Both the position numbers and the translations under genes were made by a program. This document shows, one piece after another, positions 148 through 44,648 of a stretch of 45,628 nt of DNA; within the stretch, counting starts at the first letter, position 1; every line of letters begins with the position of its first letter. Below the pieces are notes generated by a model, which saw only the letters and a list, made by a program, of their open reading frames with translations, did not search any database and was not told where the DNA came from. Source of the stretch: an uncultured Bacilli bacterium (lineage in GTDB: Bacteria > Bacillota_I > Bacilli_A > RF39 > UBA660); contig CALVHY010000053.1 of NCBI GenBank assembly GCA_944329205.1, forward strand, positions 1 through 45,628. The letters run 5' to 3'.

Positions 148-1467
148 TTACGAAACCACTACGAAGGGGTCAGTAGACGACCCTGTACCAATTAATACAA
201 CATCAGACCTTAGGTTTAAGACAGGACGGACGCCTAATGAGTAAGTCACGAAGTTATCATGGTCCAGGCTGCCATCCGAAGCCACCCGAAACACGTAACT
301 ATAGACGCCCAAACTGTTTGTGTGAGCCGGAGACATTGTCCAATATGCACTGCCCGTATGTAAATAATAGCCACCATTTGAATTATCTGCTCCTCCGGCA
401 TAAGCTGCTTCATCCGCCGTGATTAATCCGACGGGATAAGTTAACGCTTCATTCCCTATTCCTGCGCCATCGACGGTATATAGATCATTATCAGGATCAG
501 GGCAATCATATGTTGGGATTTTATTCCAAGTCAACCTATACATTGCTCCATAATATGTTGTCGTGGTTCCGGTTCCGCCCGTATCATTTGGTGCTCCCCC
601 ATTTGTTGTAGTTGATGTTCGATCACCACAGAATCCCGTTGTTGTTGATATCTTACTCGTGTACTCGCTATAAATTTCTATATTATCTTGATACCATTCA
701 TCTACTCTTCTTTTAATTGCACTACTAGACCCTAGTCCATGCACTTGTCCACTTGTATACATATATCCTACATACATGTTATTATTATACGAACTATTGA
801 AGGCACTGGCACTTGGCAATTGACTTCCTGTGTCAGTAGTACTGGTGCCATTATATATAATTCTCACTGTGCCATCGCCATTGATCCTGATGATTCGCCA
901 GTAGAATCCTGCAAAGGAAAGCCAGTTTTCAGTGGTGTTCCCGGCAAAGTAATAACTTGTTCCATCCCCATCCGGGGCTTGATATATCGTGCCATTAGTG
1001 TTTGTAGTCAATATTGTACTAAAGTCTATTCTTTCTTGGATTGTTTTATCTGCTAATATTACTTCGGATAAAACGTATATATCAAAATACAAATAACATT
1101 TAGTCCCCTTATCTGTCATTGGAGTTACAGTTAAAGCTTGAGTTGTTATATCATAGTTTAAACTAATTGATGTATCTTTTTCACCATTAACTTCACAATA
1201 ACTTTCGCTACTGTTTAATATGTATTCGCTTGTGGGGGCAGTATCAACGCTTACATATTCCCCTGCTTCATTTTCTTGATACATAGCAATAACATTTAAA
1301 TCAGCATTATTAAATGTAATAGTTCCATTAATTAGAGGAATACTTTGGGTAGTTCGATATTTTGCTCTTGTAAAGTTTAGGATTAAGGTTGTGATTAACG
1401 CTATGACGATTACTCCTATGATGATGTTTCTTGGTAAGTTGTTGGTTTTTAATCTTTCTATTTTCAT
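148..1467 (-). CDS. N-terminally membrane-anchored surface protein, paralogue A (constant leader module + type-1 head domain); function unknown
   Basis: 439-aa ORF. It has a short basic tip (MKIERLKTNNLPRN) and one TM helix (IIIGVIVIALITTLILNF). A two-Cys beta-rich module follows (PLINGTITF...ESYCEVNG...KGTKCYLYFD), shared with 20784-22091 and 37462-38883. The Gly/Thr/Ser-rich head carries WRIIRINGDGTVRIIYNG, GFCGDR, VGLITADEAAYAGG, YWTMSP and GVRPVLNL, and aligns along its full length with 20784-22091. RBS AGAGGTA lies 3 nt before the ATG. The motif skeleton recalls DUF6273-type extracellular domains (from memory, not searched). Confidence 0.85.
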   Translation of the reverse strand: MKIERLKTNNLPRNIIIGVIVIALITTLILNFTRAKYRTTQSIPLINGTITFNNADLNVIAMYQENEAGEYVSVDTAPTSEYILNSSESYCEVNGEKDTSISLNYDITTQALTVTPMTDKGTKCYLYFDIYVLSEVILADKTIQERIDFSTILTTNTNGTIYQAPDGDGTSYYFAGNTTENWLSFAGFYWRIIRINGDGTVRIIYNGTSTTDTGSQLPSASAFNSSYNNNMYVGYMYTSGQVHGLGSSSAIKRRVDEWYQDNIEIYSEYTSKISTTTGFCGDRTSTTTNGGAPNDTGGTGTTTTYYGAMYRLTWNKIPTYDCPDPDNDLYTVDGAGIGNEALTYPVGLITADEAAYAGGADNSNGGYYLHTGSAYWTMSPAHTNSLGVYSYVFRVASDGSLDHDNFVTYSLGVRPVLNLRSDVVLIGTGSSTDPFVVVS

Positions 1468-1643
1468 TTTTACCTCTTTCTTAGGGAAGGTCTACTTCAT
1501 TTTCTAAATAAATTAAAACAAATATAATATATCCATATAGTTATATATATAGTATATATCCATTTGGTTATATAGTCAAGCAAATATTTTTATGATGTGT
1601 AAAATAAGATTAGAGGTATTGTATGAAAATAGAAAGATTAAAA
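1447..1643. repeat. Perfect 21-bp inverted repeat (arms 1447-1467 and 1623-1643) bracketing the 155-bp divergent control region
   Basis: The reverse complement of 1447-1467 is ATGAAAATAGAAAGATTAAAA, identical to 1623-1643. The arms are the first 7 codons (MKIERLK) of both divergent genes. Both are preceded by AGAGGTA at 3 and 4 nt. Confidence 0.9.
1528..1574. promoter_or_regulatory. Two 20-bp direct repeats, candidate operator for the adjacent XRE protein
   Basis: tatatccatatagttatata (1528-1547) and tatatccatttggttatata (1555-1574) match at 18 of 20 positions, with starts 27 bp apart. Each is partly palindromic. A homologous pair exists in locus 3 (38934-38984), also followed by AGTCAA. Confidence 0.5.
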
Positions 1644-1859
1644 GAAATTAGAGAAGATAAAGATCTTCTCCAAAAAGATATTGCTAAAATATTAAATATT
1701 ACACAAGTTCAATATTCTCGTTATGAAACAGGAATGAGAGTAATACCAGTATATCATCTTGAAAAATTAGCTCGTTTTTATAATACATCAATTGACTATT
1801 TAATTGGTCTTACCGATGAAAGATCACCTTATCCTAAAAGCATATTAAGTAATAAATGA
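1623..1859 (+). CDS. XRE-family helix-turn-helix transcriptional regulator (cassette regulator 1)
   Basis: 78 aa. It has the typical Cro/CI-type HTH (LLQKDIAKILNITQVQYSRYETG) and is a paralogue of 39038-39271, with the same C-terminal tail (IDYLIGLTDERSPYPKSIL). RBS AGAGGTA is present. It is divergent from 148-1467. Confidence 0.9.
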   Translation: MKIERLKEIREDKDLLQKDIAKILNITQVQYSRYETGMRVIPVYHLEKLARFYNTSIDYLIGLTDERSPYPKSILSNK

Positions 1860-6619: not shown

Positions 6620-7569
6620 CTATATTAATAAATAAGCATAATAAAAAGCAAATATTCCAAGCATGATTATTGCCTCTTTTCTAGTTATCGTTTTCTCGCT
6701 TCTTGCAAAGATGAAAAGCAAGAATGAAGATAAAAAGAGAATGACAATATCAACTAGGCCAAAGCCATTTAAGGTCATGTCTCCATAAATAACGATAGGA
6801 AGGCCTAAAACAATACAGATATTAAATATATTGGTACCGATAATATTACCTAAAGCCATATCAAATTCCCCTTTTCTAGCGCTGGTAATAGTCATAACCA
6901 TCTCGAGTAAGCTTGTGCCAATGACAACGGCAACCATTGTAATAATTTTATCACTCACATTTAATGCTTCGGCAATATTAGTAGCATTATCTACAATTAA
7001 ATCACTACTATAGATAATTAGTAAAATAGATACAATAATTAAAATAAGGGCTAAATATATAGGATATTTAACTTCTTCTTTTTTTCTATTTCTTTTTTGC
7101 GCATAACCATATTAACCAAATATAGGACAAAAATCATAAAAACTAATATCAAAATTAAGCCATCACTTCTTGAAAAAGTATTAGGTGTAAGAGGATTAAA
7201 CATACTATCAAACATTAAAATGGCAAAGCAAGTTGTAACCAAAAATAAAATTGGTAGTTCTTTTTTGATAGTGATATGCTTTACTTTAATTGGTTTGATA
7301 AAACTAGCAATCCCAATGATGAAAAACACATTAACAATGGAGCTACCTACAATATTGGCAAAAGCCATCTCCGCGTTTTTGAGGGCCACACTTCGAAAAG
7401 AAATAGCCATTTCCGGAGCACTGGTTCCAAAAGCAACGATCGTAAGGGCAATAAGCATTTTGGGAACACCCATCCTTGTGGCTAAGCTTGATGCGGCATC
7501 TACTAATATATCACTTGCTTTAATAATAACAATAAAACCAATAATTAAAAATACGACTGCCATATTCAT
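6620..7569 (-). pseudogene. Ca2+/cation antiporter (CaCA, YrbG-like) split by a 1-nt frameshift at a homopolymer
   Basis: 7051-7569 encodes the first alpha-repeat half (GTSAPEMAISF). 6620-6958 encodes the second (GTSLLEM...ALGNIIGTNIFNI). By hand translation the second frame stays open upstream through 7081 (KEEVKYPIYLALILIIVSILLIIYSSDLIVDNATNIAEALNVSDK). The two frames meet at the A7 run (plus-strand T7 at 7079-7085). One extra A would fuse them into a normal-length protein. Confidence 0.8.
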
Positions 7570-7964: not shown

Positions 7965-8789
7965 ATGGAAAGATATCAAGATATAGAAAGAAGTATTATC
8001 AAAAAGTATCGAAAAAATATTTGGTGTAAATTTACAAAAGCAATTAGAGATTATGAAATAATTCAAGATAATGATAAAATTATGGTATGTATAAGTGGGG
8101 GTAAAGATTCTTTTTTAATGGCAAAATGTTTTCAAGAGATTAAAAAACATGGGAAAGTAAATTTTGATGCTTATTATGTTGTAATGAATCCTGGATACAC
8201 TAAACAGCACTTAGAAGAAATTAAAACAAATGCTGAGATTTTAAATATTCCTATCGAAATATTTGAAAGTGATATTTTTGCCTCAGTAGAAGTTATAAAT
8301 CATAAAAGTCCTTGTTATATGTGTGCTAGAATGCGTAGAGGTCATTTGTATAATAAAGCAAGAGAGCTTGGTTGTAATAAAATAGCGTTAGGTCATCATT
8401 TTGATGATGTAATTGAAACTAATCTTTTATCCATGTTTTATGGGGCTGAAATTAAAACGATGCGTCCTAAACTTCATAGTACTAATTTTGAGGGATTGGA
8501 ACTTATTAGGCCAATGTATTTAATAAAAGAGCAAGATATTATAGCATGGAGTAAATACAATAATTTAACTTTCTTAAACTGTGCTTGTAAGATGACTTTA
8601 GAAAGTACAATTGATGAAGAAAAAAGTAAAAGAAAAGAAATTAAAAAATTAATTAATAACTTAAGAAAAACAAACCCTTATATTGACTATAATATATTTA
8701 AAAGCATGGAAAATATTAATTTAGATCAAATATTGGGTTATAAAAAAAATAATGAAAAACATTATTTCTTGGATGATTATGATAAATAG
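7965..8789 (+). CDS. ttcA: PP-loop ATPase, TtcA-like tRNA 2-thiocytidine biosynthesis protein
   Basis: 274 aa with the PP-loop SGGKDS preceded by IMVCI, plus CYMCARMRRGHLY and HHFDD motifs as in the TtcA family. Confidence 0.75.
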   Translation: MERYQDIERSIIKKYRKNIWCKFTKAIRDYEIIQDNDKIMVCISGGKDSFLMAKCFQEIKKHGKVNFDAYYVVMNPGYTKQHLEEIKTNAEILNIPIEIFESDIFASVEVINHKSPCYMCARMRRGHLYNKARELGCNKIALGHHFDDVIETNLLSMFYGAEIKTMRPKLHSTNFEGLELIRPMYLIKEQDIIAWSKYNNLTFLNCACKMTLESTIDEEKSKRKEIKKLINNLRKTNPYIDYNIFKSMENINLDQILGYKKNNEKHYFLDDYDK

Positions 8790-20783: not shown

Positions 20784-22091
20784 TTAGTTTACAACGAATG
20801 GGTCATCGGCTGTTCCGGTGCCGGAGAGTTGGACATCAGCCGAGAGATTTAATACTGGTCGGACACCTAACGCGTTAGGCATGTATTCGTAGGTCAGGGA
20901 TCCACTCGAATTCACATAGAAAACGTAAGCAGTGCCGGCACTAAAGAAATACGGAGACATCGTCCAATAATCCTGGTTCGTATATAGATAATAACTACTA
21001 TTGTTTACTCCTCTTATTCCCCCTGCATAGGCTACTTCATCCGCTGTAATTAATCCGACTGGATAAGTTAAAGCTTCATTTCCAATTTCTGATCCTTCCG
21101 TCGTATAGAGATCACTATCATTTGAGCAGTTATATGTTGGTATTTTATTTATATTTAATCTTATATATGCTCCATAATATGTTGTCGTTGTTCCAGTCCC
21201 TCCTGAGCCATTACTTATAGTTTCATTTGTACTTGGACTTCTATCTCCACAGAACCCAGTGGTGGTAGATATTTTGCTCTTATAGTCTGTATTACTCGCT
21301 ATGTTATTTTGGTACCATGTATCTACTGCACTTTTTATGATACTACTTGTTCCAAGGCCATGTACCTCACCATTTGTGTACATATATCCGACAGAGGCGT
21401 TATTTCCCGACGAGCTATTAAATGCACTGGTACTGGATAACTTGGTTCCTGTTCCCGTAGCACTAGTGCTTGTACCATTATAAATTATTCTTACTGTCCC
21501 ATCGCCATTGATTCGGATGATCCGCCAGTAAAATCCAGCAAACTGTAACCAATTTTCGGTCGTGTTACCAGCAAAGTAATAACTAGTGCCTTCCCCATCC
21601 GGGGCTTGATATATCGTGCCATTGGTATTTTCGGTTAATACTGTGCTGAAATCAGTTCTTTCTTGAATTGTTTTGCCAGCCAATATTGTATCACTCGCTA
21701 ACACTTGAATATCAAAATACAGATAACATTTTGTACCCTTTTGGGATGTTCCTAATATATTTATTTTTCCATTTATATATTCAATGGTGATATCCTCGTC
21801 TTTTACATCATCTACGGCACAATAACTCTCACTTGTGTTTAAGGTATAACCACTTGTTGGTACTATATCTACCTCATCATATCCTCCCGCTTCATTTTGT
21901 TGATATATAGCCACTATATTTAAATCATAAGGAATATATGTGATTGTCCCATTGATTAAAGGAAAAGATTCGGTTACCCGGTATTTTGCTCTTGTAAAGT
22001 TTAGTATTAAGGTTGTAATTAACGCTATGACTATGACTCCTATAATAATATTTCTTGTTAAATGATTCTTTTTTAAAGTCTCTATTTCCAT
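20784..22091 (-). CDS. N-terminally membrane-anchored surface protein, paralogue B (constant leader + type-1 head)
   Basis: The ORF track extends to 22115. I prefer the ATG at 22091 (MEIETLKKNHLTRN), which has RBS AAGAGGAAAG 4 nt upstream. It has the same TM helix and two-Cys module as A and C. The head is collinear with A (WRIIRINGDGTVRIIYNG, GFCGDR, VGLITADEVAYAGG, YWTMSP, GVRPVLNL). A 32-nt stretch is identical to A (21592-21623 = 965-996). Confidence 0.85.
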   Translation of the reverse strand: MEIETLKKNHLTRNIIIGVIVIALITTLILNFTRAKYRVTESFPLINGTITYIPYDLNIVAIYQQNEAGGYDEVDIVPTSGYTLNTSESYCAVDDVKDEDITIEYINGKINILGTSQKGTKCYLYFDIQVLASDTILAGKTIQERTDFSTVLTENTNGTIYQAPDGEGTSYYFAGNTTENWLQFAGFYWRIIRINGDGTVRIIYNGTSTSATGTGTKLSSTSAFNSSSGNNASVGYMYTNGEVHGLGTSSIIKSAVDTWYQNNIASNTDYKSKISTTTGFCGDRSPSTNETISNGSGGTGTTTTYYGAYIRLNINKIPTYNCSNDSDLYTTEGSEIGNEALTYPVGLITADEVAYAGGIRGVNNSSYYLYTNQDYWTMSPYFFSAGTAYVFYVNSSGSLTYEYMPNALGVRPVLNLSADVQLSGTGTADDPFVVN

Positions 22092-22336
22092 AATCTTTCC
22101 TCTTTTCCCATGCATCTTACCATACTTTTAAATTTATTTCATTACGTTCGACAAAACTAGCTAAAACTTAGCAATTTGCTATCTTTATCTACTCTATATA
22201 TTTAATATACATTATTATTGAGTAAAAATCAATAAAAATCGTTTTATTTTATGAAAAATTATTTTATGTTGCATACTTGGGTTCTCTTATTTGTTTTTTT
22301 GTGTAACAATTAATACAAAGAAAGAGAGTTTTTAAA

Positions 22337-22795: not shown

Positions 22796-22863
22796 TCTAG
22801 TTTTTATTTGGTATATTTTGGTTCTTGATTTAATACAATTGTTTGCTTATAATTAAAGTGGTG

Positions 22864-24129
22864 ATGCAAATGACGCAGGTTTATTTAAAACGAAACTTTT
22901 TGTGTATTGATCTAAAAAGTTTTTTTGCTTCCGTTGAATGTTTGGATAGAGGCAAAGACCCTTTTAGCTATCCTTTGGTGGTAGCTAATCCTAAGCAAGG
23001 GACAGGAGCGATTACCTTGGCTGTTAGTCCTTATCTTAAAAGCTTGGGTGTAGCATCAAGATCGCGTCTTTTTGAAATACCTAAAAAAATAAAATATGTT
23101 ATAGCAAAACCGAGGATGAGTCTTTATCTTGCTAAATCAAGAGAAGTAGTTGAAGTTTATTTAAAATATGTAGCTAAAGAAGATTTACATATTTATTCGA
23201 TTGATGAATGTTTTTTGGATGTAACAGATTATTTAAAAATGTATAAAAAAAGTGATTATGAACTGGCCTTAGATATTTTAGAAGATGTAAAAAGGACAAC
23301 TGGATTGTGTGCTACTTGTGGGATTGGGCCAAATATGCTTATGGCCAAAATAGCAATGGATATCGAGGCCAAACATAATAATGATTTTATAGCAAAGTGG
23401 ACTTATGAAGATATCCCGGATAAATTATGGAGTATAGCTCCTCTTTCTAAAGTTTGGGGAATTGGGCCGAGAATGGAAGCTAATTTAAATAAAATGGGGA
23501 TTTATACGATGGGTGATTTAGCTCATTTTGACCGCTATAAATTAAAGCAAAAATTTGGTGTGATTGGTTTAGAACTTTGGAATCATGCGAATGGGATTGA
23601 TCTTAGTAGAATTAGGAATATGGAAAAAGGAGCTGATAAGTCTTATTCCCATAGTCAAGTGTTGTTTAAAGATTATAATGGGGAAAATATTAAGATTATT
23701 ATTAGAGAAATGGCCGAAGTTATGGCTCTTAGATTACAAGAGAATCATAAGACTTGTCTTAAAGTGGGACTGGGTATGTCGTATTCCAAAAGTGTTGGTG
23801 GTGGTTTTTTTCATCAAATAACCCTTAGTAATCCTACCGATAGAAAAGATGTGATTTTGGCTAATTGTTTAATGATTTTTGATAAGTTTTATCAAGATTT
23901 ACCTATTCGCAAAGTTAGTATTAACTGTGGAGATTTGGCGGATAAAACAGGAGTGCAATTAAATATTTTTGATAATATCAACGAAATAGAAGAGGCTGAT
24001 AGTATTAATCAAGCTATAAGGGAAATTAAAAATAAATATGGGAAAAATTCTTTACTTAGTGCCTCTAGTTTACTTAGGGATTCAACCATTAAAGATCGGA
24101 ATAAAAAAATAGGAGGTCATACGGCATGA
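22864..24129 (+). CDS. Y-family (UmuC/UvrX-like) translesion DNA polymerase
   Basis: The motifs are FLCIDLKSFFASVEC and SIDECFLDVT (catalytic acidic residues), with little-finger region homology. The start is uncertain: the track uses TTG at 22843, and ATG 22864 or 22870 lie behind GGTGA. Confidence 0.88.
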   Translation: MQMTQVYLKRNFLCIDLKSFFASVECLDRGKDPFSYPLVVANPKQGTGAITLAVSPYLKSLGVASRSRLFEIPKKIKYVIAKPRMSLYLAKSREVVEVYLKYVAKEDLHIYSIDECFLDVTDYLKMYKKSDYELALDILEDVKRTTGLCATCGIGPNMLMAKIAMDIEAKHNNDFIAKWTYEDIPDKLWSIAPLSKVWGIGPRMEANLNKMGIYTMGDLAHFDRYKLKQKFGVIGLELWNHANGIDLSRIRNMEKGADKSYSHSQVLFKDYNGENIKIIIREMAEVMALRLQENHKTCLKVGLGMSYSKSVGGGFFHQITLSNPTDRKDVILANCLMIFDKFYQDLPIRKVSINCGDLADKTGVQLNIFDNINEIEEADSINQAIREIKNKYGKNSLLSASSLLRDSTIKDRNKKIGGHTA

Positions 24130-24440
24130 TTGATCGTGGTTTTGTTAAATGGCAACCCTTTAATTCCCTTACACCACTTAAAGATACATTTGAAGAAATT
24201 GATAAAAATAAGACTAAGAGAAAACCTGTTTTGTTTCCAGAACAAGTAAGTTTACTTAATGAACAGATACTTAATGCTTATTATAGTAAAGATAACATAA
24301 TTATTAAGTATTATGAAAATGGCAAAATAATGAGTGTTAAAAGTGTTATTAAAAAAATAAATCCAAGTAGCAAATTAATGGAACTTGGATGTGGTAAAAA
24401 ACTATTCTTTGGTCAAATTATTCAAGTTAAATCGGGATAA
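24126..24440 (+). CDS. YolD-like protein (accessory gene commonly paired with UvrX/YqjW-type polymerases)
   Basis: 104 aa starting MIDRGFVKWQPFNSL, the YolD signature. It overlaps the polymerase stop by 4 nt. Confidence 0.75.
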   Translation: MIDRGFVKWQPFNSLTPLKDTFEEIDKNKTKRKPVLFPEQVSLLNEQILNAYYSKDNIIIKYYENGKIMSVKSVIKKINPSSKLMELGCGKKLFFGQIIQVKSG

Positions 24441-36248: not shown

Positions 36249-36270
36249 AAAAAAAGGCTTAAATAAAGCC
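36249..36270 (-). terminator. Weak terminator-like hairpin between paralogue D and parC
   Basis: On the minus strand, GGCTT-tattt-AAGCC followed by T7. The stem is only 5 bp, and the hairpin ends about 29 nt before the parC ATG. Confidence 0.4.
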
Positions 36271-36348: not shown

Positions 36349-37437
36349 TTAGGATATTTCATACGGATTATCATAACTTCCGTTGCCACCCATTAGCTTT
36401 ATTTCGCTTTTTAAGTAAATCGTTGGTCTTACATTATAACTGGAAGGGTCATCTGTTCCACTTATAACATATCCTAATACCATTGGTAGGCCGTTATAAT
36501 ACTTGGCAATACTCCACTCATAATTGTGTGTATTTAACCAATTTTCCCCAGAACAATCTGAAGTATAATAACGACTTACGTTAGTTGTTCTTGAGCAGCT
36601 GCTCGCTAGAACTGCATAACCATAATCACTTGGATACATTAAGCCAACTTTTCCAGTCCATTTATCCGATCCACTTCTCTCATCACTATATATAGTTGTT
36701 ACTGGAGAATCTGTGTCACCTACAACGCTTAAATGCCAATCAACACTTTCTATTTGATTTCTTGATATTTCATCTAAACCAGTTTTACTAAAATAACACG
36801 TTTTGGTAAGATTTGCATAATATGCGCATGTGCTATCAGTGGCATTTAAATAGCCATTATTTAATTGTTCTTGTAATGATGATGTCCCCCAATTTCCAGA
36901 ATATGAATTATTCCACGATAAGCTATCTATTTCACTATTTCTAATTAATTTAACTAGATTTTGGTTAGAGCCATTTTCTGTTGCTACGTTGAAAACGCCA
37001 ATTATTCTCCATAACTCGTTGTTAAATAAGACGTAATTATTTGGATTTGATCCTTCATAGCGATAGCCGTTTTCATTTACAAGACAATCTACTGCTTCAT
37101 GATTTTCTGTTGGAGTGGTTGTGCAAACTTTTTCTATTAAATAATCAGCGAAATTCTTTTCGTCATTACTTACAAACTCTATAGTGCAAGTACTATCATT
37201 TGAGGCAGCTGCAATTTCTAATCTCCATGTTGAGTAATTAAATTTTGCAGTAGTTCCATTTGTGCAATTAATATTAGCCACCTTATATCCTTTAGTACTT
37301 TCTATTGGCACTGCTGCTAATTTTCCATCAATATATGTATTAACTTTAACATTACCATGTTCTTTTTTTATAAATCCCAAACTTATTAAAATGACCATTG
37401 TAAATAATAAGCCAAAGATTATTAAATTCTTTTTCAT
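36349..37437 (-). CDS. Secreted/anchored surface protein, paralogue D (own signal-anchor + two-Cys module + type-2 head)
   Basis: 362 aa. The signal/anchor is MKKNLIIFGLLFTMVILISLGF. The two-Cys module is INCTNGTTAKFNYSTWRLEIAAASNDSTCTIEF. The head is collinear with residues ~190-473 of 37462-38883 (FADYLIEKVC, DCLVNENGYRYEG, ELWRIIGVF, MYPSDYGYAVLASSC, VRPTIYLK, GGNGSYDNPYEI). Confidence 0.85.
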   Translation of the reverse strand: MKKNLIIFGLLFTMVILISLGFIKKEHGNVKVNTYIDGKLAAVPIESTKGYKVANINCTNGTTAKFNYSTWRLEIAAASNDSTCTIEFVSNDEKNFADYLIEKVCTTTPTENHEAVDCLVNENGYRYEGSNPNNYVLFNNELWRIIGVFNVATENGSNQNLVKLIRNSEIDSLSWNNSYSGNWGTSSLQEQLNNGYLNATDSTCAYYANLTKTCYFSKTGLDEISRNQIESVDWHLSVVGDTDSPVTTIYSDERSGSDKWTGKVGLMYPSDYGYAVLASSCSRTTNVSRYYTSDCSGENWLNTHNYEWSIAKYYNGLPMVLGYVISGTDDPSSYNVRPTIYLKSEIKLMGGNGSYDNPYEIS

Positions 37438-37461
37438 TTTAAACCTACTTTCATTTTTTAA

Positions 37462-38883
37462 CTAATTGGCAAGTGATAAAGCAAATGGCTCATCTATAGT
37501 TCCATTCCCACCCAATAAAGACACATTAGCTTTAAGATAAAGAACCGGTTTTATATTTTCTGTAAAAGATGGCGACCAACTATATATATTTCCAAGGCCA
37601 TTTATATAGTAAATGCTATAATATGACGAAGAATCTTGAGTCATGGTCCAAAGAGAATAAGACGATTTTAACCAATTTGCTCCAGCACAGGCTTCATTAT
37701 TGTAGTTATCAAGCCTAGTTGTTCTTGGGCAACTACTTGCTAGTACCGCATAACCATAATCACTTGGATATATTAAGCCTATTTTTCCAGTCCAAGTAGT
37801 CGATCCGCTGTAAACACTTTGACCTCTTTCAGAACTATAAAACGATGATGCTGTAGCACTAGCACTTCTTGCGCCTCCTACATTCCATATAACGCTTTCT
37901 ATCATATTTCTTGATGTACTTTTAATTCCCGTTTTTCCAAAATAACATGTTTTTGTATTAGACAAATAAAAGTTACAAGTTGTATCCGTTTTATTTAAGT
38001 ATCCATTATTTAATATTGTTGGCAATCTTGTACTACTCCATGTGTTTATTCGACTTTCGTGTATTGCAAGACTATCCAATACTTCATTTCTAATAATCTT
38101 TACTAAATTTTGAGATGTTCCGGCTGCAGTGGTAACACTAAATACTCCTATTACTCTCCATAATTCTCCGTTAAATTGTACATAATTATTTGGAATGGTT
38201 CCTTCATATCTATAGCCATTTTCGTTTACTAAACAATCCTTTGCTTCTTCATTCGTTGTTGGAGTACTTGAGCATGTTTTACTTATTAAATAATCAGCAA
38301 ATGATTGATTAGTGTTTTCAACAAAATTAACTGTACATGCTGTCCCATCTATTCCGTCAATTTCAATTATCCAGTCTTCATAATTAAATTTTGCAGTGGC
38401 ATCATTATTGCAAACAATGCTATCTATAGTATAATTACTACTTTTTTGGGGAAATGTGTCTGCTGCATCACCGTTTATGGTTGCTAAAACCCTTATACCT
38501 CCGTCATCAAAATATAAATAACATTTTGTCCCTTTGGATACAACTCCAATATACACTTTTCCATTTTCATAATTCATTGATATTGTATCATCTTTTTCGC
38601 CATTTACTTCACAATAACTTTTTTCTTGATTTAATTTTGTACCACCATTTGGCACCTTATCAATACTTACATATTCCCCTGTATCATCTTGTTGATACAT
38701 AGCAATAACATTTAAATCGGCATTATTAAATGTTATTGTCCCATTGATTAGGGGAATGCTTTGGGTATTACGATATTTAGCTCTTGTGAAATTTAGTATT
38801 AGGGTTGTAATTAACGCTACTACTATGACTACTATAATAATATTTCTTTTTAAATGACTTTTCTTTAATGTTTCTATTGGCAT
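37462..38883 (-). CDS. N-terminally membrane-anchored surface protein, paralogue C (constant leader + second two-Cys module + type-2 head)
   Basis: 473 aa. The N-terminal ~125 aa are nearly identical in pattern to A and B (MPIETLKKSHLKRNIIIVVIVVALITTLILNFTRAKYR...NGTITFNNADLNVIAMYQ...KGTKCYLYFD), with long identical nucleotide runs shared with A. The remainder is paralogous to D, not to A or B. Confidence 0.88.
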   Translation of the reverse strand: MPIETLKKSHLKRNIIIVVIVVALITTLILNFTRAKYRNTQSIPLINGTITFNNADLNVIAMYQQDDTGEYVSIDKVPNGGTKLNQEKSYCEVNGEKDDTISMNYENGKVYIGVVSKGTKCYLYFDDGGIRVLATINGDAADTFPQKSSNYTIDSIVCNNDATAKFNYEDWIIEIDGIDGTACTVNFVENTNQSFADYLISKTCSSTPTTNEEAKDCLVNENGYRYEGTIPNNYVQFNGELWRVIGVFSVTTAAGTSQNLVKIIRNEVLDSLAIHESRINTWSSTRLPTILNNGYLNKTDTTCNFYLSNTKTCYFGKTGIKSTSRNMIESVIWNVGGARSASATASSFYSSERGQSVYSGSTTWTGKIGLIYPSDYGYAVLASSCPRTTRLDNYNNEACAGANWLKSSYSLWTMTQDSSSYYSIYYINGLGNIYSWSPSFTENIKPVLYLKANVSLLGGNGTIDEPFALSLAN

Positions 38884-38933
38884 AAATTATCCTTTCGTGA
38901 AGTTCTACTTCATTTACTTTTTTAGGCATTTAT

Positions 38934-38984
38934 TATAACCTATTTTAGCTTATATAAACAATATAACCCATTTTGGGCTAAAAG
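38934..38984. promoter_or_regulatory. Operator-like direct repeats in the locus-3 control region (homologous to 1528-1574)
   Basis: tataacctattttagcttatata (38934-38956) and tataacccattttgggctaaaag (38962-38984), followed by AGTCAA as in locus 1. Confidence 0.45.
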
Positions 38985-39037
38985 TCAATACTCTGATTTA
39001 GGTTATGATAAAGTATATTTAATAAAGGAAGATGATT

Positions 39038-39271
39038 ATGAATAGATTGCGTGATTTAAGAGAAGATAGAGATCTATTGCAAAAGGATATTGCTGAATTT
39101 TTAAATATGTCTCAAACTGGCTATTCAAAGTACGAAGTTGAAACTAATGATATACCTACCGATATATTAAAAAAACTTGCATCTTATTATAATACAAGTA
39201 TTGATTATTTACTTTGCTTAACTGATGAGAGAAAGCCTTATCCGAAAAGTATTTTAAATGATGAAAATTAA
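39038..39271 (+). CDS. XRE-family HTH transcriptional regulator (cassette regulator 3)
   Basis: A paralogue of 1623-1859 (LLQKDIAEFLNMSQTGYSKYE...IDYLLCLTDERKPYPKSIL). I prefer ATG 39038, 7 nt after the AAGGAAG RBS, over ATG 39032. Confidence 0.9.
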   Translation: MNRLRDLREDRDLLQKDIAEFLNMSQTGYSKYEVETNDIPTDILKKLASYYNTSIDYLLCLTDERKPYPKSILNDEN

Positions 39272-43782: not shown

Positions 43783-43802
43783 GGATGGGAAAGGAGAAAA
43801 AG

Positions 43803-44648
43803 ATGTATCCAAATTATAATACCTTGATGCATGATATTATTTTTAAGGAGTCTTTTGCAAATGAACATAACCGTAGACAGCTAGAAAGTTTACTAGAAAA
43901 TCTTTTGGGATATGAAAAAGGATATTTAAAAAATAAACTTAAAGTGTCTTATGAAAATCAGATTACTAAAGCTAATGCTTTTGAAAAAGCATCTAGGACA
44001 GATATTATTATTGATTTTGATGATATGGTTGTAGATTTAGAGGCTTATACTTATTTAGATGAAGAATCGGTAAACAAAAGTACTTTCTATGTCATGAAAA
44101 TTAGTGCTTCTAGGCTTATCTTAGGAAGGGAATATGAGCCATTAAAAGTAGTTCAATATAATTTTGTTGATAAGGTGCGTTTTGAGGTTGGCCCAAAAAT
44201 CGTAAATACTTTTCACTTAGTGCATAAAGATTATCCAAAAATAAAAATAGCTGAAAACATGTTTCAAATTAATTATATTCGCGTTGACAAAGTCAGAGAG
44301 CTAGGATATAATGAAAATGAATTAATTAAATGGTTTCGCTTTATAGCTGCGCAAAGTTATGAAGAAAGAAGACAAATAGCTGAAGGGGATGAACTGTTTA
44401 TGGATTTTAATAAGTGGATTGATGAGTATGTTAACGATGATGTGACCAAAGAAGCGATGGCAAAATGGAATAAGGAGATTGAAGACAATAAGAATATTAA
44501 GATTGCAAGAGAACTTGGACACGAAGAAGGTCGTGAGCAAAGAAATATAGAAATAGCTAAAAGCTTATTAAACTCAAGTTTATCAATACAAGAAATTTCT
44601 GAACATACCGGCTTAAGTATTCAAGAAATAGAGAATCTTCAAAACTAA
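43803..44648 (+). CDS. Rpn-family recombination-promoting nuclease / PD-(D/E)XK putative transposase (YhgA-like)
   Basis: The N-terminus MHDIIFKESFANEHNRRQLESLL and the D...E.K core (RTDIIIDFDDMVVDLEAY) fit the family. The C-terminal HTH-like tail is IEIAKSLLNSSLSIQEISEHTGLSIQEIENL. I take the start at ATG 43803, behind AAAGGAGAAAAAG. Confidence 0.8.
   Translation: MYPNYNTLMHDIIFKESFANEHNRRQLESLLENLLGYEKGYLKNKLKVSYENQITKANAFEKASRTDIIIDFDDMVVDLEAYTYLDEESVNKSTFYVMKISASRLILGREYEPLKVVQYNFVDKVRFEVGPKIVNTFHLVHKDYPKIKIAENMFQINYIRVDKVRELGYNENELIKWFRFIAAQSYEERRQIAEGDELFMDFNKWIDEYVNDDVTKEAMAKWNKEIEDNKNIKIARELGHEEGREQRNIEIAKSLLNSSLSIQEISEHTGLSIQEIENLQN

Follow-up and report, generated by a model that had tools for sequence, protein, structure and literature searches.

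The contig CALVHY010000053.1 of an uncultured Bacilli bacterium (assembly GCA_944329205.1), whose whole length of 45,628 nucleotides is called the window below, carries four paralogous genes for predicted surface proteins (A to D), grouped into three cassettes that each include a divergently transcribed regulatory gene of the XRE type. It is probable that these genes belong to a repressor-gated family of variable surface proteins of the kind diversified by diversity-generating retroelements (DGR), and that the family is present here without its DGR. In relatives a DGR rewrites part of the target gene: the Avd and reverse transcriptase (RT) pair copies a template repeat (TR) rich in Asn codons with errors at adenines, and the copy then replaces the variable region (VR). 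The four genes and the junction between the last two are as follows:

148-1467, minus strand: gene A, an open reading frame (ORF) of 439 amino acids with the common leader and a type-1 head
20784-22091, minus strand: gene B, 435 amino acids from the start consistent with the family (the mechanical ORF start is at 22115), with the common leader and a type-1 head
37462-38883, minus strand: gene C, an ORF of 473 amino acids with the common leader, two stalk modules and a type-2 head
36349-37437, minus strand: gene D, 362 amino acids, anchored by a separate signal-anchor and combining the second two-Cys stalk module with a type-2 head; orthologue of the second, more downstream target of the related DGR loci
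37438-37461, minus strand: C-D junction of 24 nt, a position occupied in related loci by Avd, RT, TR and an ORF of 82 amino acids

The four ORFs, which a preliminary description of the window had placed in three loci, and the three XRE genes were all found at the positions given there or within a few bases of them, and the protein motifs quoted there all occur in the translations. Their paralogy goes beyond chance: A and B share 69% amino acid identity and align by blastn at 72.5% across 1175 nt (E 3e-177), A and C align at 70.7% across 699 nt comprising leader, intergenic region and XRE gene (E 3e-76), and C and D at 66% across 640 nt (E 3e-47). The N-terminal leader common to A, B and C, described earlier as about 125 amino acids long, measures 125-130 amino acids with 63-69% identity, and its conservation extends to the nucleotide level as had been claimed, the 21-mer at 1282-1302 (A) and 38698-38718 (C) being identical against a chance expectation of 0. 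The second two-Cys module and the head type are common to C and D, as the alignment confirmed. At the protein-cluster level, the window proteins are single-member clusters.

As judged from gene order and protein alignment, the C/D locus is the counterpart of a two-target DGR locus with the arrangement XRE <-> C-like - Avd - RT - TR - orf82 - D-like. In L008, one of the related loci compared here (L008, L009, L010, L021, L089, L096 and others, metagenome assemblies throughout), the order is a divergent XRE gene with two helix-turn-helix domains (2xHTH), a C-like gene, bAvd, an RVT_1 RT, the TR, the 82-amino-acid ORF and a D-like gene. C is 56% identical to the C-like target of L008 (P0016) and D is 55% identical to the downstream D-like target (L008:9732-10865); the heads of C and D align over their full length with the targets of L008, L089 and L090 (55-56% identity), and their VR-equivalents sit between W-T-M-T and [GN][VI][RK]P. 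The TR of L008 is a 92-nt repeat lying right after the RT, with AAC or AAT at 15 of its 30 codons, and it recurs C-terminally in both flanking genes. When it was compared with the two VRs, of which VR1 has a GC content of 50%, mismatches at adenine sites and at other sites numbered 14 versus 6 (p 0.002) and 10 versus 5 (p 0.03).

The same layout, with RT and TR, is found in L089 and L090, which come from two further samples and give 15 adenine-site versus 4 other mismatches (p 1.6e-4); Avd is cut there to its last 39 codons (L089:4300-4416, L090:4081-4197), and the differences between the C-like VR and the TR are still nearly all at adenines. L009 and L010 carry the same locus minus the segment L008:7700-9102, so that the 3′ end of the RT and a shortened TR are left. 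A more distant DGR exists in L096 and L097, whose RT is 55% identical to that of L008: a single-HTH XRE gene homologous to XRE_A, the regulatory gene beside A (E 6e-20), is divergent from a signal-anchored protein with a type-2 head, and TR, Avd and RT follow downstream of this target, the TR-VR pair of L096 showing 16 adenine-site versus 1 other mismatch (p 1.7e-7). Because orthologous loci carry Avd, RT and TR, the variability of this family arises chiefly from mutagenic retrohoming into a C-terminal segment of about 30 codons, and not only from head swapping.

The window itself lacks this machinery. When the L008 proteins were used as queries in tblastn and phmmer, neither RT nor Avd was found in the 45.6-kb window, and when the entire window was scanned, with tolerance at adenines, for matches to the final 330 nt of each gene, only A-rich noise came up in place of a TR; the window also has neither an AAC-dense TR-like stretch nor the TR flank motif. 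The AAC-dense stretch at about 557-646 was ruled out as a TR, being a run of Thr codons inside gene A read in another frame. Since TR and RT were sought in the window and none was found, A to D are not classed as current DGR targets. The corresponding segments of C and D are:

37558-37635, minus strand: VR-equivalent of C, GC 31%, with the closing G(A/V)RP changed to NIKP
36436-36501, minus strand: VR-equivalent of D, shortened, GC 36%

The VR-equivalent of C is probably a fossil. Because RT, Avd and TR are absent from the contig, C and D are probably fixed here, and the variability attributed to them by the preliminary description was not upheld; that is to say, they would now be binding proteins of fixed specificity. 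The window would thus stand at the far end of a series of DGR decay, in which the direction (loss, rather than never acquired) is suggested by the related loci and by the decay of the VR.

The heads of A to D are predicted to have the DUF6273 / C-type-lectin-like fold used by DGR variable proteins. The AlphaFold2 model of C (predicted local distance difference test score 85.9) consists of a helix at 11-34, beta domains at 58-127 and 131-189 and a globular part at 195-473, which corresponds to a cytoplasmic tail of 13 amino acids and a transmembrane (TM) helix, joined through a disordered linker to two beta-sandwich stalk modules, each with two Cys, and the head. In a Foldseek search of the PDB with this model, the top and sole significant match was 9qa6 (E 5.5e-7 over 303 columns), and the matches among the predicted viral structures of BFVD were DUF6273 and receptor-binding proteins (E 1e-7 to 1e-5). 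9qa6 is the immunoglobulin A (IgA) peptidase of Thomasclavelia ramosa, whose N-terminal domain is annotated as DUF6273 (PMC12402451), and DUF6273 has been reported as the C-type-lectin-like domain bearing the VR of gut-phage DGR targets, the 'tentaclins' and Mtd-like proteins (PMC10743442; bioRxiv 10.1101/2024.10.15.618418).

In the Pfam and NCBIfam search C and D were without any match, and A and B reached only sub-threshold scores for DUF6273 (PF19789; A 19.1 bits, E 1.3e-3; B 19.8 bits, E 7.6e-4; gathering score 23.5); PDB sequences searched with a profile yielded no match at E <= 1. Precomputed PF19789.7 matches are present in homologues of both head types at 57-73% identity (P0002, P0046, P0122, P0127 and others), and the DUF6273 model appears insensitive for the leader-bearing branch, because only 14 of its 94 representatives match at E <= 0.01. 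The two head types, suspected earlier of being distant homologues, are indeed related, type 1 and type 2 (A versus C) aligning in hhalign with a probability of 97.9% and E 4e-13 across the C-terminal 67 columns, VR included. The guess that the heads might be DUF6273-like was right, and the components, for which the preliminary description recognised no characterised function, belong to a recognised kind. By predicted fold, A to D are structural members of the DUF6273 branch, working like DGR variable proteins of the C-type-lectin class.

The type-1 heads of A and B differ in state from C and D. Their VR-like segments are:

235-327: VR-like segment of A, GC 48%, 21 of 31 codons NNY
20868-20951: VR-like segment of B, GC 44%, 20 of 28 codons NNY

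Across 62 distinct type-1 genes from the metagenome loci, the segment from YWTMSP to GVRP forms a comb of invariant scaffold and hypervariable positions. K, E, Q or M occupies 3.1% of cells at the hypervariable positions of the comb and 19.0% in hypervariable columns elsewhere (Fisher p 5e-48), and C or T stands at the third codon position in 81% versus 43%; both the depletion of K/E/Q/M and the C/T third base are predictions of AAY-templated mutagenesis. Within clusters of at least 90% identity, nearly all differences fall inside the VR, and this applies to type-1, type-2 and D-type clusters; the exception is the P0152 cluster (729 amino acids, 'Mycoplasma sp. CAG:776'), which shows no VR variation. 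None of the roughly 70 type-1 loci has an RT in the surrounding 10 kb, so any diversification of type-1 heads must act in trans.

It is possible, although we think it doubtful, that A and B, and perhaps C and D too, are live remote targets of a DGR outside the 45.6-kb contig, which would diversify them in trans as part of an active dispersed repertoire. The composition of the VR-like segments of A and B (44-48% GC, mostly NNY codons, in a 31% GC contig), the type-1 alleles of at least 90% identity that differ almost only in the VR, and the type-1 loci far from any RT all agree with such an arrangement, and remote targets are acknowledged in DGR surveys (PMC8144416). Elements resembling TRs also stand alone near type-1 cassettes in L023, L033 (three copies), L045, L064, L067 and L009. 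However, neither a TR nor a TR-like element is present in the window; silent differences separate A from B at scaffold positions of their VR-like segments; B has GAA and ATG at hypervariable positions, so that the two were not recently rewritten from one TR; most TR-like elements match neighbouring VRs poorly; and the GC-rich G-V/A-R-P end of the VR has been lost in C and D.

These stand-alone elements (L033:6001-6112, 7087-7198 and 8432-8543; L045:4839-4950, minus strand; L064:9239-9350, minus strand; L067:7524-7635, minus strand; L023:8729-8843; L009:2924-3028, minus strand) are VR-length, Asn-codon-rich copies of the type-1 VR (e.g., MSPYNFNGSNANVF.VNSNGNLNNNNVNNTNGVRPISF*) lying outside ORFs with conserved flanks, 0.5-4 kb from the cassettes, and no RT occurs within the fetched 10 kb. 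In ungapped and gapped comparison with neighbouring type-1 VRs they show mostly weak adenine bias, the best pair having 12 adenine-site versus 6 other mismatches; they are best described as TR-like, not as proven templates. DUF1016/YhcG nuclease-like genes alternate with them in L033 and L009. In L064 (8697-9041, minus strand) and L045 (4297-4641, minus strand), an N_methyl prepilin-type protein (E 2e-8) is divergent from an XRE-less type-1 cassette, and the TR-like element lies between the two.

A wider form of the idea, in which one distant RT together with dispersed stand-alone TRs would diversify XRE-gated receptors across the whole genome, expressed selectively and with A and B as live remote targets, seems unlikely. 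To return to the repressor-gated family without its DGR, A and B keep a VR-like composition, and a DGR in another part of the genome could still serve them as remote targets.

A to D belong to a large surface-protein family of uncultured low-GC gut and rumen Bacillota. The leader family comprises 352 representatives at 50% identity, with the leader N-terminal in every case, so that the cassette noted in the window recurs well beyond it. Of 94 long leader-bearing representatives, type-1-like heads are found in 73 and type-2 heads in 7, while the leader of the other 14 is joined to different extracellular modules (Big_7, fn3, PT-HINT, DUF285, LRR), which bears out the earlier view of modular heads on a constant leader. 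The cytoplasmic tail is conserved as M-x-F-E-x-L-K-x-S-H-L-K-R-N, and the juxtamembrane motif as FTRAKYR. The relatives recovered by a scan of a genome collection were all distant ones, which matched in the head alone (30-37% identity) and had no leader. Leaders fused to non-DUF6273 heads were seen in P0343 (= L025:9998-11167), P0345 (= L054:7563-9662) and L080:9998-10945; heads of this sort include Hint/PT-HINT (pretoxin) modules, DUF285, LRR, arrays of fn3/Big_7, and a head of 690 amino acids that is rich in repeats and resembles a beta-helix. Among the relatives there are also several ORFs truncated to the leader alone.

It is improbable that A to D are ordinary paralogous adhesins, shaped by duplication, leader recombination and point mutation, with the DGR of the relatives as a late and irrelevant add-on. 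The fusion of the leader to several unrelated heads, the absence of an RT near most loci and the P0152 cluster without VR variation would all suit it, but in both head types hypervariability is VR-restricted, NNY-biased and K/E/Q/M-depleted, adenine-biased TR/VR pairs occur in several independent loci, and remnants of an RT and TR deletion are left at the orthologous position.

The second part of the preferred reading, that is, the gating of each cassette by its own repressor, concerns the XRE genes and the intergenic regions, whose features are:

1623-1859, plus strand: XRE_A, 78 amino acids, divergent from A, HTH_3 53.1 bits
22337-22795, plus strand: XRE_B, 152 amino acids, tandem HTH, divergent from B, HTH_3 76.5 bits in two domains
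39032/39038-39271, plus strand: XRE_C, 79 amino acids, single-HTH Cro/C1-type, divergent from C, HTH_3 47.2 bits (E 2.3e-12)
38960-38988, minus strand: sigma-A-type promoter of C, TTGACT-17-TATATT, 10 of 12 consensus matches
1551-1579, minus strand: predicted promoter of A
38934-39012: operator-like repeats AAAT(A/G)GGTTATA, with exact direct copies at 38934-38945 and 38962-38973 spaced by 28 nt
1527-1537 and 1554-1564: two copies of the candidate XRE_A operator (A/T)ATGGATATAT
38899-38912, minus strand: element TGAAG-N5-CTTC(A) in the 5′ untranslated region, a few bases before the ribosome-binding site of C

All three XRE proteins score above the HTH_3 (PF01381) cut-off of 23 (E 1e-12 to 1e-21), in agreement with the earlier assignment of a divergent XRE-type gene to each locus, and XRE_B has two HTH domains. 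The adjacency is kept in related genomes: 60 of 72 leader-bearing genes with enough upstream sequence have a divergent HTH_3 gene directly upstream, 50 of which are XREs detectable with the window XRE proteins and 10 are more distant HTH_3 genes. The XRE_B type is the commonest XRE class of the family, most partners elsewhere being 2xHTH proteins of 150-165 amino acids with 35-47% identity, and relatives of XRE_C that are 89-92% identical occupy the same position in L021 and L050. The tail following the HTH in the single-HTH class, Y-L/I-I/L-G/C-L-T-D/S-E-x-x-P-x-P-K-S, is common to XRE_A, XRE_C and L096:6553-6795, the last of which belongs to an active DGR locus.

A TTGACT-17-TATAAT promoter facing the surface-protein gene is conserved in intergenic regions across unrelated contexts. 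Of the repeats upstream of C, one copy lies over the -10 and the other downstream, and a degenerate inverted copy is upstream of the -35; the two direct copies are the only exact matches of AAAT(A/G)GGTTATA in the window. The XRE_C-type motif is kept in L021 and L050, and other XRE classes have other motifs: the candidate operator cores contrast as GGATATAT versus GGTTATA, and the 2xHTH class has CTAG-centred palindromes. Such class-specific repeats over the promoter fit pairs of cognate repressor and operator, and each XRE protein may thus repress its own cassette. The preliminary description had proposed an individually repressed variable surface system; the cassette, the XRE adjacency and the class-specific promoter repeats speak for this, but in this contig C and D are probably fixed.

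The element (AAA)TGAAG-N5-CTTCA also occurs at 1486-1499 (minus strand); of 72 distinct upstream regions 32 contain it, 3-6 nt ahead of the ribosome-binding site. It may be a site for a DNA-binding protein or an RNA element, but an RNA hairpin is not supported, since its variants carry mismatches without compensatory changes and it has no Rfam match; Rfam returned only three tRNAs and one chance miRNA-like match.

A and XRE_A start with the same 18 nt, ATGAAAATAGAAAGATTA (MKIERL; 1450-1467 and 1623-1640), which form a perfect inverted repeat around the intergenic region of 155 nt. As an inversion site it was discarded, being found at one locus only, with gene starts at 48 loci elsewhere sharing 4-12 of the 18 bases; because it is unique to the A cassette, it is treated as a local coincidence or conversion. 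At 47 nt downstream of XRE_B and on the same strand lie a Y-family DNA polymerase with IMS domains (22843-24129) and a YolD-like gene (24126-24440), so XRE_B might head a translesion-polymerase operon as well.

The close pairing with XRE genes also invites another interpretation, in which the proteins would be transmembrane sensors whose heads relay ligand binding through the 13-amino-acid tail to the XRE protein, each cassette being a one-receptor signalling unit. The tail and the FTRAKYR motif show far more conservation than a plain signal-anchor would require, the pairing with XRE genes is likewise kept, and the C-terminal tail GLT-E--P-PKS is common to XRE proteins; we nevertheless hold it to be quite unlikely, for the cytoplasmic tail comprises very few residues, some members, D and the L096 target among them, are anchored by other means, and 12 of 72 loci have no HTH gene. 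Least probable of all is a prophage remnant, with the XRE protein as phage repressor and the DUF6273 proteins as receptor-binding or superinfection-exclusion leftovers: XRE_B scores 84.1 bits in the RstR family (NF041951, cut-off 80 bits; XRE_A 50.5, XRE_C 49.8), DUF6273 is common in gut phage tail proteins, and some related loci have Bro-N genes and transposase fragments nearby, but the XRE_B score adds up the contributions of two tandem HTH stretches, the window cassettes are not surrounded by genes for phage structure, integration or lysis, the proteins have an N-terminal TM anchor and not tail-attachment domains, and a phage-borne origin was dropped because the 122 pattern matches from the leader alignment in 2.9 million viral contigs were all unconfirmed, leaving no leader-bearing relative there.

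In the family of repressor-gated variable surface proteins proposed here, sequence and models show each protein to start with a short, highly conserved tail in the cytoplasm and a single TM helix, from which a flexible linker leads to a stalk of one or two beta-sandwich modules with disulfides and to a distal DUF6273 / C-type-lectin-like head. The last approximately 30 residues before G-V/A-R-P are the counterpart of the VR of DGR targets and would, going by the known behaviour of the family, form the ligand-binding surface. The divergent XRE protein would bind the promoter repeats and repress its own cassette, so that the copies could be switched individually. Several points weigh against this proposal. 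There is no DGR component in the window and nothing showing that these four genes ever diversified, and the direction of change for this contig is drawn from relatives and from VR decay; some TR-VR pairs of L008 have 5-6 non-adenine mismatches; and the comparison loci are all metagenome assemblies. None of the four window proteins attains the Pfam cut-off for DUF6273, and the model of A, with the same top PDB match 9qa6, reaches only a marginal E of 0.022. As for regulation, 12 of the 72 loci are without a divergent HTH gene, and XRE binding, repression and surface exposure are predictions.

The known systems nearest to this family include the C-type-lectin-fold variable proteins of DGRs, for example Mtd (Bordetella phage BPP-1), TvpA (Treponema denticola) and LdtA (Legionella). 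Like them, the present family has a ligand-binding head that ends in a VR of about 30 codons just before the C-terminus, an AAY-rich template with differences at template adenines (L008, L089, L096), and, in the relatives, Avd and RT beside the target. Unlike them, it matches the DUF6273 branch, with no detectable sequence similarity to the three proteins; it has an N-terminal TM anchor with a beta-sandwich stalk and a divergent XRE gene; and the window is without RT, Avd and TR. With the DUF6273 proteins (gut-phage targets, 9qa6) it shares the fold, by Foldseek for C and by Pfam matches in close homologues, and with the DUF6273 DGR targets the position of the VR at the C-terminal edge of the domain. 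The four window proteins, however, lie below the Pfam cut-off, and whereas the phage targets are viral, this family is cellular, chromosomal and multi-copy, with its own leader anchor and a regulator for each copy.

In the survey of Roux et al. (2021), membrane-bound cellular DGR targets were described and the binding of cells, particles or viruses was proposed for them, and only targets next to an RT were detected (PMC8144416). The family resembles these targets in its N-terminal TM segment or signal peptide, its extracellular binding modules and its C-terminal C-lectin VR, and differs in that most members are far from an RT, share one leader/promoter module and are paired with XRE genes. The regulatory part resembles the Cro/C1 switches of lambda-type and RstR-type in HTH_3, in the divergent layout and in two to three short repeats over the -35/-10 with predicted binding; in contrast to those switches, control would extend over a surface-protein gene or an entire DGR operon and not over a lytic module, and many partners are tandem 2xHTH proteins. 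Nothing specific was found in the literature on DGR together with XRE or a repressor. The common leader/promoter module, the divergent XRE gene that is present at an active DGR locus too, the many copies far from an RT, and the stepwise loss of the DGR core that is suggested at one orthologous site were likewise not described in the literature searched.

Bacteria rarely have programmed hypervariation of proteins, DGR variable proteins being one such case, and the majority of the targets on record came to light only because an RT lies beside them. This family, with dozens of paralogous C-type-lectin-like receptors across small gut Bacillota genomes, is mostly located far from RT, and the graded decay at one orthologous locus (intact, Avd-truncated, RT-deleted, nothing) could help to follow the fate of a variable protein after mutagenesis stops. 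If the XRE genes gate single copies, the cassettes would be a model for the expression control of a hypervariable repertoire, and candidate ligands (host glycan or mucin, IgA, other cells, phage) would bear on gut colonisation.

As to the surroundings, the cassettes of this contig, whose GC content is 30.9%, are flanked by housekeeping or sporulation genes, as had been noted: YetF and TGT; SpmA/B-like and DacB-like (D-Ala-D-Ala carboxypeptidase) genes; ParC; PBP2B with PASTA, RsmH and MraZ; and the YlbD coat gene. One more feature lies beside D:

36256-36270: bidirectional terminator-like hairpin between D and parC

This hairpin would mark the end of a putative C-D operon. A gene of the PD-(D/E)XK_2 'transposase' family (43785-44648) adjoins mraZ on the opposite strand. 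In the rumen 'Firmicutes bacterium' loci L092 and L093 (4166-8504), three tandem family genes (611, 450 and 378 amino acids) stand a few genes downstream of the RsmH-FtsL-PBP2B block, which is also the one beside the C/D cassette of the window, with no XRE gene called in L092 and L093.

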